A DNA stretch of 58,234 nucleotides from Calditrichia bacterium (GTDB lineage: Bacteria > Calditrichota > Calditrichia > JAJRVZ01), in assembly GCA_023132435.1 (NCBI GenBank), contig JAGLYF010000190.1:1-58234 (forward strand). The letters are read 5' to 3'. The translations under genes and the position numbers were made by a program. Shown here piece by piece: positions 2,996 through 54,313 of this stretch. How positions within the stretch are numbered: the stretch's first letter is position 1; every line of letters starts with the position of its first letter. The notes beneath the pieces are model-generated. The model was not told the DNA's origin. It did no database searches and saw only the letters and a program-made list of their open reading frames with translations.

Positions 2996-3140
2996 CCACG
3001 GATTAACACGGAAAATTACACGGATTTAATTTATTTAAGGATGATTTGGCTTTAATAATTTTATACTTTTCATAAAGTCATATTATTTTTTCTAAATGCT
3101 TTATTTTCAATACTCTGTGTACATCCGTGCCCTTCCGTGG
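2996..3140. repeat. CCAC-word fold-back element, CACGGA variant
   Basis: Left arm is ccacggattaacacggaaaattacacgg (2996-3027). Right arm is ctctgtgtacatccgtgcccttccgtgg (3113-3140). The arm words are complementary. Confidence 0.8.
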
Positions 3141-3293
3141 TGAATAATTTCATCTAAAATAATTATTAAAAATATCAATTTTATCTTCAAGATATGAAAT
3201 TAAGTGGACGATAATACTTAACAAAGTGGAAACATTACCCAAAAAAGATTATATGCTTTCGGGACAGATTTAAAAGAAGGAAGGAAGGCGTAG

Positions 3294-11486: not shown

Positions 11487-11726
11487 AATTCCCCCTTTGC
11501 TGGGGCTGTTGCAGAATCGATAAAATTAGCCGTAAATGTCATACCTGCGAAAGCAGGTATCCATGGATCCCCGCTTGCGCGGGGATGACAACTTGGGTTG
11601 GGGTATAAATTCCCGCTGGAGTTTACCCCGTACTTGATGCGGGGCGGGAATGACAATTTAAGACTTTTTCAGCACTAAAATTGTTAAATATTGATAATCT
11701 GCAACAGCCCCTGCTAAGGGGAAATT
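11487..11726. mobile_element. MITE-like element with 29-bp terminal inverted repeats and internal tetraloop hairpins
   Basis: The TIRs aattccccctttgctggggctgttgcaga (11487-11515) and tctgcaacagcccctgctaaggggaaatt (11698-11726) match 26/29. Internal hairpins are atacctgc-GAAA-gcaggtat and atccccgc-TTGC-gcggggat. No ORF is present. Confidence 0.7.
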
Positions 11727-31070: not shown

Positions 31071-31143
31071 CCACGAATTACACGAATTAATGCGAATTAC
31101 ACGAATTGATCTAAGAATTTTTAAAAGAAATTCCTGGACCCAT
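31071..31143. repeat. CACGAATT-word element with a degenerate right arm
   Basis: The left arm ccacgaattacacgaattaatgcgaattacacgaattg is followed at the far end by aaattcctggaccca. It ends at the stop codon of the gene at 31144-31605. Confidence 0.75.
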
Positions 31144-33604: not shown

Positions 33605-33743
33605 CCACGAAGGACACGAAGGTCACGAAGATAATTTATAATTTAGAGTAATATTATGATCGGTGATTTTGTAGTCGCGTCGCTACTTCTCTACATTGCC
33701 TAATATTGTTAAATTCTATAAAAAGATCTTCGTGCTCTTCGTG
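33605..33743. repeat. CCAC-word fold-back element, CACGAAGG variant
   Basis: Left arm is ccacgaaggacacgaaggtcacgaagat. Right arm is atcttcgtgctcttcgtg. The word variant is complementary between arms. Confidence 0.85.
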
Positions 33744-33856
33744 TTTAAATTAGATTCTTCCTGAATCACCGGTGTTGTGAATTTAATTAAAAATAATGAC
33801 CGGGATGTTTGTATACAATAAAATAAGTAAAAAGTGGAGTAAATTCTAGCTTTTGT

Positions 33857-37858: not shown

Positions 37859-37963
37859 AATTCGTGAACCAATTCGTGTTCATCCCGTGAGATATTATTG
37901 AGCATTGTCCAGATTAATTCAAATAACCTTGTTTATCTCACGGGATAAATTCGTGGACTAATT
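37859..37963. repeat. right-arm-type AATTCGTG words plus a cccgtgagat/atctcacggg hairpin, abutting the truncated gene
   Basis: aattcgtgaaccaattcgtgtt (37859-37880), the inverted repeat 37884-37893 / 37935-37944, then aaattcgtggactaatt (37947-37963). Confidence 0.8.
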
Positions 37964-38220: not shown

Positions 38221-38335
38221 GGGTCCACGAATTACACGAATTTTATAACCCTCCCCATCCCCGAAGGCTCGGGGACTTCCCCTCCCTTACGTATAAGGGA
38301 GGGGAATATGGGGTGGATTAATTCGGGATGACAAA
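38221..38335. repeat. CACGAATT left end fused to C-rich multi-hairpin module
   Basis: gggtccacgaattacacgaatttt is followed by the hairpins ccccga-aggc-tcgggg (38259-38274) and cccctccctta-cgta-taagggagggg (38279-38304), then gggatgacaaa. Confidence 0.8.
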
Positions 38336-46436: not shown

Positions 46437-46529
46437 CCACGAATTACACGAATTTGGCACGAATTAACACGAATTTTATTAATCTAATAATTAATTCGTG
46501 AAATTCGTTTTCATTCGTGAAATTCGTGG
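46437..46529. repeat. CACGAATT-word fold-back element, archetype copy
   Basis: Left arm is ccacgaattacacgaatttggcacgaattaacacgaatttt, followed by a 15-nt AT loop. Right arm is aattcgtgaaattcgttttcattcgtgaaattcgtgg. Confidence 0.9.
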
Positions 46530-47186: not shown

Positions 47187-47480
47187 ATTAAAATTATTTT
47201 GATTCTGGTTTTATTTTATGAGGTAGCCCATCAGCCCGCCCCAACATTGGTCATTGAATCTTCCTTGTTGAATATTGGGCCTTCTATCCTTGGGAAACTA
47301 AATCTATCTCATTGTTATTCTGTTATAGGTCATCCCTATGGGACTTCATGTTTTGGGGATGTCTGAATTACCCCGGACTTCCGTCCGGGGCTAGTCTTGG
47401 GCCATCCCTTCGGGATTCTTATTTTGTAACTAATCTAGTTTACGGATTAAATAAATACATAAATCCGTGGTCTATTACAA

Positions 47481-48536: not shown

Positions 48537-49136
48537 ATGAAATTAATAAGCACATTAATTCTTGTTGTTGTTCTCAGTTTTGCCGCCTTTGGTCAGGAAT
48601 ATATGACAACTTTAACCTATAACATATCGGCACCGGCTGGAGAAACAACACAATTTATCGAATCTCCCAGTTATCTGGGTCTTAGTTTTGATGGAAGAAA
48701 GTTTATTCTTCCTTTCATTTCCGTAGGTTTTTATACCGGTTGGCAGGTTTTTTACGAGCAAAGTAATATGCCCTTAAATGTCGACAAGGGTACCATCTCA
48801 GGAAACCAATATCGCTATATCAATTCTTTTCCAATTATGCTCAATGCCCATCTCTATATTGGTCCTGACCAATGTATGAGACCGTATGTCGGTATTAATG
48901 CCGGCGCCTATTTTACCTGGAAGAGATTAAACATAGGTGTTATTACAGCAGAAGAGAAAAAATGGGTTCTGGGTTTTGCACCTGAAGTTGGTATGACAGT
49001 CCCGATTGGAGATGTGCATCTCAACCTCGGTGCGAAATATAATTATGCACTGCCTCCGGGTGATTCGGAATATTATGAAGAAGCTGACCCACTTCAGTAT
49101 GTCAGTTTCCATATTGGTTTTGCCTATTATCGTTAG
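48537..49136 (+). CDS. small outer-membrane beta-barrel protein
   Basis: Signal peptide and an alternating beta-strand pattern. It is a paralog of 51052-51645 (compare LTYNISAPAGETTQFIESPSYLGLSFDGR with ISYDISIPTLDTKEFVNNISLVGFGLDAR). Confidence 0.5.
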   Translation: MKLISTLILVVVLSFAAFGQEYMTTLTYNISAPAGETTQFIESPSYLGLSFDGRKFILPFISVGFYTGWQVFYEQSNMPLNVDKGTISGNQYRYINSFPIMLNAHLYIGPDQCMRPYVGINAGAYFTWKRLNIGVITAEEKKWVLGFAPEVGMTVPIGDVHLNLGAKYNYALPPGDSEYYEEADPLQYVSFHIGFAYYR

Positions 49137-49162
49137 TCGGGTATTCCGCTAAAGTTTTTTTA

Positions 49163-49373
49163 CCACGGAATGCCACGGAAAAGAAACACTGATTGGTTCA
49201 CGAATTTGTCCACGAATTACACGAATTGGACACGAATTATCACGAATATTTCTTAATAATTCCTTGATAGTTTGTGTGATTCGTGGATAGAAATGAATTA
49301 TCCAGGATAAATAAGACATTTTATAAATTCACTCAAAATATAATTTTCCGTGTTTCTCCGTGTGATTCCGTGG
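49163..49373. repeat. nested fold-back elements: CACGAATT-type copy inside a CACGGAA-type copy
   Basis: The outer arms are ccacggaatgccacggaaaag (49163-49183) and ttttccgtgtttctccgtgtgattccgtgg (49344-49373). The inner element (49198-49306) runs from ttcacgaatttgtccacgaattacacgaattggacacgaattatcacgaat to gtgtgattcgtggatagaaatgaattatccagg. Confidence 0.85.
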
Positions 49374-49408
49374 TAAAATGTTTTTCTTCAAAATCTATTA
49401 TTTATAGC

Positions 49409-49435
49409 GCCCGGAAATATTTCCGGGCTTTTTTT
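49409..49435 (+). terminator. intrinsic terminator
   Basis: gcccggaaa-ta-tttccgggc (9-bp stem) followed by T7. It lies ~270 nt downstream of the stop at 49136, with the nested repeats in between. Confidence 0.7.
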
Positions 49436-49534
49436 ATGCCTCAGCCTTCTCCGTTTGTATTTTATCCTAATTTTAGTTTAATTATATTGTAAACCATAGA
49501 ATAATTATGCTGCGTCGAGATGCCGTTATTTAAT

Positions 49535-49630
49535 GGATTCCCGCTTCCGCGGGAATGACAATTTGTGAGAAAGTCACAGTAATATTGTGAAATACTGTGT
49601 ATTCTGCAACAGCCTGCTCTGGCGGAAATG
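49535..49630. repeat. right-half copy of the 11487-type MITE
   Basis: ggattcccgcttccgcgggaatgacaattt, ~39 nt of spacer, then tctgcaacagcctgctctggcggaaatg parallels 11641-11726. It ends 35 nt before the next ATG. Confidence 0.7.
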
Positions 49631-52581: not shown

Positions 52582-52617
52582 AGCCACCTCAAGATCGATT
52601 GGGGTGGCTTTTTTTTT
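52582..52617 (+). terminator. intrinsic terminator
   Basis: Stem agccacctc / ggggtggct with a 10-nt loop, followed by T8. It is immediately followed by a CACGAATT element. Confidence 0.65.
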
Positions 52618-52619
52618 AT

Positions 52620-52727
52620 CCACGAATTACACGAATTTCCCACGAATTAACACGAATTTTTTTAAAATTCTTTGACCAGTTCGTGTAATTCGTACTAATT
52701 CGTGAAATTCGTGGACCAATTTGTGGA
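52620..52727. repeat. CACGAATT-word fold-back element
   Basis: Left arm is ccacgaattacacgaatttcccacgaattaacacgaattttt. Right arm is cagttcgtgtaattcgtactaattcgtgaaattcgtggacc followed by aatttgtggat. Confidence 0.9.
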
Positions 52728-54022: not shown

Positions 54023-54070
54023 TGTTCCCTTAACCCTTCACCATGATGTGCTATTTTCAAGTTTTTTTAT

Positions 54071-54313
54071 CCACGAATTACACGAACTATTCCATAAATA
54101 TTTAACCTGATCTATAGCATAAATTTCTTGCGCAAAGGCGCTAAGACGTAAAGAAATAATTATTTATAAGGAATAGATTTAATTTAAAATTCAATTTCAC
54201 AATCTTGACATAAATTATTCAAAAATAAATCGTTGCGTCGCTGCGTCGTCGCGAGAAATGAATTATCCCGGTTAGTAGATATTCTTAAAATTCGTGGACT
54301 AATTCGTGGACCC
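54071..54313. repeat. long CACGAATT-type element (243 bp)
   Basis: The left end is ccacgaattacacgaac. An internal gagaaatgaattatcccgg motif is shared with 31036 (reverse) and 49287. The right end is aaaattcgtggactaattcgtggaccc, 3 nt from the stop codon of the next gene. Confidence 0.8.

Follow-up and report, generated by a model that had tools for sequence, protein, structure and literature searches.

We analyzed a 58,234-nucleotide (nt) stretch of DNA (the window), a piece of the chromosome of an uncultured cold-seep sediment bacterium of the Calditrichia, in which two fold-back elements, the inner nested in the outer, occupy the spacer between the stop codon of a small outer membrane protein (OMP) gene and its terminator. 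Contigs identical to the window are present in ENA and Logan assemblies, and the runs that contain its sequence are cold-seep or sediment metagenomes. The window carries housekeeping genes, as well as a cluster of genes for small OmpW-like β-barrel proteins and DUF4136 lipoproteins. The OMP gene concerned (48537-49136, + strand) is an open reading frame (ORF) for an OmpW-like small outer-membrane β-barrel protein of 199 amino acids (aa), whose homologues either bear the name "outer membrane protein W" or match Pfam OMP_b-brl, and its neighbours are paralogous OMP genes and a DUF4136 lipoprotein gene. The last base of the OMP stop codon is 49136, and at 49409-49435 (+) stands an intrinsic terminator formed by GCCCGGAAATATTTCCGGGC and a T7 run; its hairpin (49409-49428) has eight pairs, six of them G-C, and a loop of four. 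A terminator scan returned this as the sole terminator-like site from the OMP stop to the next gene, and in an alignment of eight orthologous loci it is conserved in all except L004, which keeps the right half only. The sequence and the scan thus confirm an earlier note on this DNA, which had placed a composite of two fold-backs between the OMP stop and this terminator.

Following the OMP stop, the composite reads, in order, a T-run, CCACGGAAT, CCACGGAAAA, five CACGAAT units, an AT-rich loop, three degenerate AATTCGTG-like units, a small hairpin module, an AT-rich stretch, three [TC]TCCGTG units, and TAAAA. The CACGGAA-type outer inverted repeat is real, its best arms being 49158-49182 and 49354-49378 (25 nt, 88% complementary, and 171 nt apart), and it reaches into a flanking T-run/A-run (TTTTACCACGG...CCGTGGTAAAA). 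Its left arm (49158-49193, +) consists of (i) the T-run; (ii) the units CCACGGAAT and CCACGGAAAA, with CACGGAA at 49164 and 49174; and (iii) a degenerate third unit, AACACTGA, which was recognised by aligning the orthologous locus L017, where CACACGGACTGAT stands at that place. The right arm (49344-49378, +) comprises TTTTCCGTG, TTTCTCCGTG, and TGATTCCGTGG, with [TC]TCCGTG units at 49346, 49356, and 49366, and then TAAAA. These outer arms match those of a separate CACGGA-type element at 2997-3143, as well as those of the L017 orthologue, with three units per arm in each.

The inner, CACGAATT-type element begins with a left arm of five units (49198-49247, +), in which CACGAAT occurs at 49199, 49211, 49220, 49231, and 49241, and continues through an AT-rich loop (49248-49256, +) into a degenerate and truncated right arm (49257-49288, +) composed of AATTCCTTG, AGTTTGTG, and GATTCGTGG. 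Its arms pair over 38 nt (49209-49246 with 49250-49287) at 74% Watson-Crick complementarity, and the right arm uses six G-U pairs on the + strand. Alignment with compact copies of the same type (46438-46528, 52621-52725, and one in the orthologous locus L005) stays in register across the left arm and loop and into the right arm for two units, and the inner copy lacks the last ∼19 nt, which are the final two right-arm units of the family. The earlier note had read a complete CACGAATT-type copy at 49198-49306; the nested copy stands, but it is truncated, with its right edge at ∼49288 by this alignment. A separate small hairpin module, TGGATAGAAATGAATTATCCAGG, lies at 49284-49306 (+) and recurs at ∼31043 (reverse complement) and ∼54258, beside other CACGAATT arrays; within it, GAGAAATGAATTATCCNGG repeats at ∼31043 (-), 49290-49306, and ∼54258, and a further string, GGACCCATTTACTTT, repeats at ∼31140 and ∼54310. 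The rest of the outer loop (49307-49343, +) is AT-rich and aligns partly with the L017 loop.

The nested structure is real and non-random. In the window, CACGAATT occurs 30 times against 2.5 expected (12-fold; shuffle maximum of 8), whereas CACGGAA alone shows no enrichment (10 versus 5.6 expected). A motif-blind scan, which required a tandem 6-mer pair and an inverted tandem pair, returned six elements in the window, all of CACG type, and none in 20 shuffles. Furthermore, the 304-nt spacer folded as RNA forms a nested hairpin of -99.8 kcal/mol (z = -6.85), and folded as DNA it gives z = -7.36. A nested small repeat in a 3' spacer is in itself an already known kind of arrangement.

Nine CACG-unit elements of 17-237 nt lie in the window, all of them in the 14.6% that is intergenic (P ∼3e-8), where they fill ∼13% of the DNA. 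The CACGAATT subfamily comprises four fold-back copies and several solo arms, and its usual form is a compact hairpin of ∼100 nt whose arms have about four units each (46438-46528 and 52621-52725); one copy with a long loop lies at 54072-54308, and the solo arms are at 31072-31107, 37859-37955, and 38226-38242. Other unit types are represented by a CACGGAT/CACGGAA element with a ∼95-nt loop (2997-3143) and by a CACGAAG element (33606-33745); at least four unit types coexist within the 58 kb. The compact CACGAATT copies agree in unit order, in a spacing of 9/11/10 nt, and in an AGTT variant carried by the first unit of the right arm, whereas their flanks are unrelated to one another; they are therefore dispersed copies of a defined sequence and not independent slippage products. 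A CACGGGA-type hairpin (ATCCCGTGAGAT...ATCTCACGGGAT) at 37880-37945 interrupts the AATTCGTG run of the solo arm 37859-37955, which makes it a second case in the window of one unit type breaking into another. The solo arrays at 31072-31107 (+) and 37859-37955 (-) are mutually inverted and 6.8 kb apart, enclosing six genes and the CACGAAG fold-back; judged from this arrangement, the enclosed segment could be an invertible or composite unit. A comparable inverted pair, ∼6 kb apart, is present in L038 (7102 and 13214).

To place the composite in its lineage, we compared 12 further loci with an orthologous OMP gene. Among species-representative genomes, the sole one with an orthologue was that of L003, a Calditrichia metagenome-assembled genome (MAG) with 69% aa identity. 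No CACG-unit element was found in the OMP spacer of five distant loci (L003, L007, L018, L008, and L012), and the stop-to-terminator gap is 48-50 nt in L003, L007, and L018. In the OMP gene tree, L007 and L018 are sister to a clade of which every member is occupied, and the seven loci of this closer clade are each in a different state. In the window, CACGGAA arms surround a CACGAATT copy. L017 (84% aa identity) has outer arms at the same boundaries, with two units of the inner left arm and a portion of the inner loop, and unrelated sequence replaces its inner right arm. L005 (94%) has a lone compact CACGAATT copy with four units in each arm, exactly at the boundaries of the outer element (TTTTTTAA/CCACG...CGTGG/TAAAAG, the slashes marking the boundaries), and L254 (84%) has a CACGAATT copy in decay whose left boundary is that of L005. 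In L004 (95%), CCACGAATTA and CACGGAATAA are followed by a CCCTCCCC hairpin that replaces the remainder, including half of the terminator. Both L006 (84%) and L253 (82%) contain CACGAATT right-arm units mixed with other repeat modules.

Comparison of these loci shows that the OMP stop-to-terminator spacer acquired the elements after the split from the L007/L018 lineage. Since L017, which belongs to the other sub-clade, already has the outer arms together with an inner left arm cut short, the common ancestor of all occupied loci probably carried the composite; and since both unit types are found in both sub-clades, the simplest history would be that the composite was acquired on the stem, at once or in two steps in quick succession, and then decayed separately in each lineage. 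The gene tree likewise suggests that the composite predates the occupied clade, and the later states look like decay. The left boundary TTTTTTAA/CCACGA of L005, L254, and L004 is identical to the outer boundary of the window composite, and L005 also keeps the right boundary CGTGG/TAAAAG, which is as expected from deletion between the directly repeated CCACG or CGTGG cores of the outer and inner units. The presence in L004 of a CACGAATT unit outside a CACGGAAT unit shows that units are also shuffled or converted. Moreover, a two-unit (20-nt) indel at 49211 separates near-identical strains, the shorter form occurring in contigs of related samples (runs X2 and X4). A second site varies as well: L006 lacks the copy at 46438-46528, and at this place L017 carries a different, G-rich repeat family.

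Insertion into the OMP spacer and rapid turnover are therefore supported by this comparison, with some qualification of what the earlier note had proposed. Of sequential insertion, the part that holds is that the spacer was invaded by repeats, as indicated by five empty loci and an all-occupied closer clade; an order of "outer first, inner second" would follow from topology only. Empty, single-element (L005, of the inner type), and composite states were all seen, but no clean outer-only intermediate was present among the orthologous loci compared. The occupied loci do not all carry the same composite, a uniformity that would have argued against sequential insertion, and range instead over composite, compact CACGAATT only, decayed, and interrupted arms. 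A target-site duplication at the inner boundaries is not visible (CTGATTGG/.../TAGAAATG), and the flanks of six window copies show no consistent direct repeat; the T-run/A-run adjacent to the arms is itself palindromic, and the empty sites are diverged (69-84% aa identity). Three joints in Logan contigs (49136 to 49342, 49136 to 49409, and 49265 to 49345) were considered as excision products and rejected, as their short sides are 27-33 nt and the contigs are of low depth or diverged; Logan contigs are short and broken at repeats.

The architecture extends beyond CACG units and beyond Calditrichia. L003 has no CACG arrays, but it contains two fold-backs of the same build with CACAAAG units (TTTACCACAAAGAACACAAAG...CTTTGTGTACTTTGTG), one of which lies in the spacer orthologous to the 52621 site of the window. 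We further scanned IMG/VR for exact strings, so that the loci below are ascertained by their unit strings, and some of the "viral" contigs are in fact bacterial gene transfer agent (GTA) clusters. Four test patterns, CCACGAATTACACGAATT, CCACGAAGGACACGAAGG, CCACAAAGAACACAAAG, and CACGGAANNNCACGGAA, returned 29, 46, 33, and more than 115 stretches, respectively, whereas two permuted-core controls, CCAGCAAGGACAGCAAGG and CACCGAATTAACCGAATT, returned 10 (mostly coding repeats) and 1; the GC content of contigs with test matches ranges from 35 to 70%. A motif-blind scan of 1.96 Mb of these loci found 56 fold-backs, nearly all of CAC-unit architecture, with unit types that include CACGAAGG, CACAAAGG, CACGGAGG, CACAGAGG, CACGGATT, and CACGAACC. 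The flanks of these fold-backs take the form (T)TCA/CCAC...GTGG/TGA(A), and the flank before CCACG varies widely across lineages. Many unit types (CACGGAGG, CACGAAGG, and CACAGAGG) have Shine-Dalgarno-like cores, and their partners have CCTCC-like strings.

One set of fold-backs, at 66-68% GC, lies between the genes of an RcGTA-like head-tail cluster, whose tail protein has its nearest named relatives in MAGs of Stellaceae (Alphaproteobacteria), at 74-76% identity. Solo arrays that point in the direction of the genes are numerous in phage contigs, where they start only a few bases from the stop codon upstream and end 0-60 nt before the next start; the genes downstream are ordinary phage genes (e.g., terminase, protease, adaptor, methyltransferase, and transposase). 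In the 4-kb phage-like contig L195 (IMG/VR 3300005512_003493), single gaps at 460-560, 2050-2150, and 2915-2990 are filled by CACGGAA arrays of three units, as many as three of them in a row and all pointing the same way. Same-type inverted arrays often bracket a single ORF of 63-334 aa in phage contigs. In a typed-bracket test on 241 loci and the window, a closing array paired with the nearest open array of like type in 57 cases, compared with 42 in type-shuffles (whose maximum was 48), and arrays crossed twice, against 6.8 crossings in the shuffles; such same-type nearest pairing and rare crossing are expected for insertion of element into element. The arrangement at 49164/49199, in which left arms of two types adjoin and each type has its own right arm, is also present in L079, L053, L076, and L077.

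Searches for a previous description returned nothing specific. Against Rfam 15, the composite had no match at the gathering threshold, and relaxing to E<=5 gave only generic plant and animal miRNA-precursor hairpins far under their cut-offs. A full-text search of open papers found none with the unit strings (a search with the bare 8-mer was uninformative, matching primers), and BLAST of one CACGAAGG fold-back (from L054) against cultured phage and plasmid records found no match. The CAC-unit family appears to be coherent and undescribed; its marks are the tandem-unit arms, the conserved CCAC[G/A] core, the type-specific tails, and the spread across phyla and phage contigs.

On balance, we favour reading the composite as two members of a family of non-coding, non-autonomous elements, "CAC-unit fold-backs", that act at the DNA level and are mobilised in trans. 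An arm consists of 2-5 tandem units of 9-11 nt, and the two arms are inverted copies; the outermost unit begins with CCACG, and each unit consists of CAC[G/A] plus 3-4 subfamily-specific bases. On this reading, the composite has a CACGAATT-subfamily copy within the loop of a CACGGAA-subfamily copy, and the nesting would be one element inserted into another. Such elements may spread as miniature inverted-repeat transposable elements (MITEs) or REP elements do, with the repeated units as putative protein-recognition sites and the matched arms as the presumptive two ends of one element. Since their entry into the OMP spacer, as comparison of the loci indicates, the elements have changed through gain and loss of units, through arm deletion between directly repeated CCACG/CGTGG cores, and through invasion by other repeat families. 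This reading is favoured by the dispersed consensus copies with unrelated flanks, the presence/absence at two sites, the matched ends, the proper nesting, and the strictly intergenic location.

Several observations weigh against it. No transposase, integrase, or other mobility gene was found in the window (Pfam on 30 window proteins and precomputed Pfam for the rest), and no autonomous partner was found either in the window or between the inverted arrays of the loci examined, among which the 6-kb segment of L038, at 69% GC, has unreliable annotation owing to frequent spurious ORFs. No target-site duplication is visible, and empty and filled sites are too diverged for exact junctions. Several unit types coexist in one genome, which implies that one protein able to recognise them all would have only the CAC[G/A] core and the spacing of units to read. 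The GTA fold-backs are kept at all three orthologous intergenic sites checked, in contigs with flanks 80-91% identical, which looks like conservation and not turnover, and the solo, gene-oriented, start-proximal arrays of phage contigs are not what random transposon remnants would give. Finally, in three metatranscriptome runs from related cold-seep samples, no contig covered the OMP gene or its spacer, the upstream DUF4136 gene alone being covered.

Co-transcription of the composite with the OMP gene is the natural expectation, since the elements lie upstream of a conserved terminator and no promoter-like or terminator-like signal intervenes between the gene and the composite; the terminator is what this expectation is drawn from. 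The elements would then be carried in a 3' untranslated region (UTR) of ∼290 nt that is predicted to fold to a nested hairpin of about -82 kcal/mol, and on the favoured reading any effect on mRNA stability would be a by-product. The principal competing explanation, which we consider unlikely, instead makes the RNA primary: a left array would pair in the transcript with the matching inverted array downstream, giving a long, periodically mismatched stem that encloses a short loop, another stem, or a whole ORF. The stem would serve as an RNase III-like processing site or as a stability element, the variable 3-4 nt per unit would confer partner specificity, and the composite would be a set of nested stems protecting the 3' end of the OMP mRNA. 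The type-matched phage arrays that bracket single ORFs, the left one in sense orientation and start-proximal, are consistent with this explanation, as are the type-specific, nested, and rarely crossing pairing; the very stable folds; and the retention of fold-backs at orthologous sites in a long co-directional GTA operon, where some unit changes are compensatory (e.g., CGCAAAGG/CCTTTGCG in L067).

The strand on which the elements fold better also seemed to speak for selection on transcripts, as the sense strand was the better in all four window elements with a clear transcription direction and, under a strict strand call, in seven of seven. However, the predicted sense-strand excess of G-U pairs over A-C mismatches failed on 30 further elements with co-directional flanks and a better strand call, of which 15 folded better in the sense and 15 in the antisense strand (mean difference of -0.5 kcal/mol), and we therefore rejected this asymmetry as a sign of transcript selection. 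Pairing in RNA is further at odds with the high turnover at the OMP site; base-pairing alone leaves the conserved CCAC[G/A] core, the unit structure, and the solo arrays unexplained; and the three metatranscriptome runs lend it no contig over the gene or spacer.

Less probable still is that the composite is one element and not two, either as a single two-tier fold-back or as a CACGAATT element whose outer units were turned to CACGGAA by slippage or gene conversion, so that no nesting insertion took place. CACGAAT and CACGGAAT do differ by one inserted G, the number of units differs between strains, and CACGAATT-type material is present in all seven occupied orthologues, with CACGGAA units in the window, L017, and L004 only. 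This explanation would also account for L004, in which CCACGAATTA and then CACGGAATAA stand within one arm, and for L076, which twice shows a left arm of two tiers with only one right arm. Against it, the inner part is in register with free-standing compact copies, down to the loop and the AGTT found in the first unit of the right arm; the outer arms match the independent CACGGA-type element at 2997-3143 and L017, with three units per arm; and each tier of the window composite has a right arm of its own.

Least probable is an array of protein-binding sites on double-stranded DNA (operator, partition, or nucleoid-protein sites) with cooperative regulator binding and incidental hairpin potential, which would suit the unit period of 9-11 bp, or about one helical turn, and the solo direct arrays upstream of phage-contig ORFs, at times several consecutively (L195), but not the variety of unit types in one 58-kb window, the widely varying flank before CCACG, the lack of promoter room so close to start codons, or the positions of elements, which follow stop codons or separate convergent genes no less often than they lie near promoters. 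In keeping with this explanation, TTATCCACG forms the outer end of several CACGAATT copies (e.g., 52616-52624 and 54067-54075), and 52717-52725 reads TGTGGATAA, which agree at eight and nine of nine positions, respectively, with the DnaA-box consensus. This position reads TTGTCCACG in high-GC contigs and TTTACCACG or TTCACCACG in other copies, and we presume because of these other copies that the resemblance is coincidence. Readings of the units as sigma-54, ParB/parS, DnaA-box, or Shine-Dalgarno-like sites fit neither all unit types nor the variable flanks.

Comparison with known systems places the elements near several classes. Bacterial MITEs include Correia/NEMIS of Neisseria, ERIC/IRU, RUP, and BOX. 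Like these, the CAC-unit elements are 100-250 bp long, non-coding, and dispersed as small copies with unrelated flanks; they have terminal inverted repeats (here tandem-unit arrays), are polymorphic in presence among relatives, are expected to be transcribed with neighbouring genes, and can nest or form composites. MITEs, however, have continuous terminal inverted repeats that match a parent insertion sequence and a target-site duplication (TA in Correia), neither of which was found here: no related insertion sequence or transposase with the same ends was seen in the window or between the inverted arrays of the loci. In BOX, the tandem boxB modules are 45-nt units central in the element, whereas CAC units sit in the arms. 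Drosophila Foldback (FB) transposons offer an analogy of architecture only, since they too have inverted arms of short tandem repeats in variable number and a loop that is short or carries unrelated DNA or genes, but they are eukaryotic, kilobase-sized, and without sequence relation. T4-type promoter/stem-loop cassettes (PeSLs) and the start-associated sequences and stoperators of mycobacteriophages are likewise short conserved intergenic motifs oriented with transcription, some of which flank accessory genes with proposed cassette shuffling, as CAC arrays bracket genes; each is confined to one phage group, lacks tandem-unit arrays, and is not known to be shared with chromosomes of bacteria in distant phyla. 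The attC sites of integrons have core sites R''/R' of the form RYYYAAC ... GTTRRRY, and we ruled out this class by the CCACG/CGTGG termini and the absence of an integrase in the window. The composite is not itself an intrinsic terminator, as it is followed by TAAAATGTTTTTC and not by a U-run.

REP/BIME elements and REPINs, which are mobilised by RAYT (TnpA_REP) in Enterobacteria and Pseudomonas (PMC2817692, PMC3333891, PMC8266576), resemble the CAC-unit elements in being high-copy, strictly intergenic, and hairpin-forming, often between stop and terminator or between convergent genes, as well as in forming mosaics with other modules, in being co-transcribed in 3' UTRs, and in having lineage-specific subfamilies. 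A REP is a single imperfect palindrome of 20-40 nt with a GTAG-type head, whereas CAC-unit arms are tandem arrays of 9-11-nt CAC[G/A]NNN units without that head, and recurrence across phyla and phage contigs, as seen for the CAC unit strings, is not reported for REPs. No RAYT gene was seen in the 58-kb window. A strict REP is ruled out by the CCACG...CGTGG termini, the multi-unit arms, and the lack of a single GTAG-headed palindrome. The only repeat reported in the genome paper of Caldithrix abyssi, also of the Calditrichota, is a REP-like 18-nt palindrome, aAACCGTTgaAACGGTTt (PMC5317091); it too is intergenic and prefers gene-downstream or convergent sites, but it is single, lies outside any larger repeat, and is unrelated in sequence.

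The intergenic regions of the window are mosaics of several repeat families. In four cold-seep metagenomes, a GGATTCCCGCTTCCGCGGGAATGAC(A) hairpin beyond the OMP terminator (49524-49625, core 49535-49559) has assembler word depths between 5,000 and 189,000, compared with ∼13 in its flanks, and hundreds of contigs break at it; a second copy at 11565-11589 carries compensatory changes (GGATCCCCGC...GCGGGGATGAC), and akin "hairpin + AATGACA" motifs come after arrays in L044 and L195. Intergenic sites in the window (38250-38330), L004 (2403-2440), and L017 (815-885) also hold members of a G/C-rich hairpin family (AACCCTCCCC...GGGGAGGGTT), which in L004 displaced the right half of the fold-back together with half of the OMP terminator, and TTGCGCAAAGGCGCTAAGACGTAAAG (∼54130) resembles a motif just beyond the OMP terminator in L003 (∼10720). 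The sole Rfam match at the gathering threshold in the window is an Acido-Lenti-1 RNA at 47371-47417 (+; 37.5 bits against a cut-off of 37), which sits in a variable spacer between a 204-aa gene and the DUF4136 gene; in L004, the sequence on the left side of that spacer is wholly different.

More tentatively, the composite may be a local case of an undescribed, cross-phylum system of "type-coded" inverted arrays of tandem units (CCAC[G/A]NNN, with a period of 9-11 nt) that would bracket DNA or RNA segments of any size and be served by a putative dedicated protein. The bracketed segments would range from 20-nt loops through other elements to whole accessory genes, in Calditrichia, Stellaceae-like Alphaproteobacteria, and many phage contigs, and the putative protein might be a new cassette-mobilising recombinase or transposase, or else an RNA-processing factor that reads the CAC core.

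At the OMP locus itself, the elements lengthen the 3' UTR ahead of the terminator about six-fold, from ∼50 to ∼270 nt, and the spacer gains a very stable nested hairpin and becomes a hotspot of strain-level variation, which makes it a natural experiment on 3'-UTR evolution in an uncultured phylum. Since contigs end at these repeats, short-read assemblies are broken there, which matters for the binning of Calditrichia genomes. The family, rather than the nesting, is the part worth following; in phage contigs it flanks accessory genes. Should a dedicated enzyme exist, it would be a new way in which gene cassettes are moved or processed; failing that, the family would be a useful example of hairpin repeats kept by arm-to-arm homogenisation.

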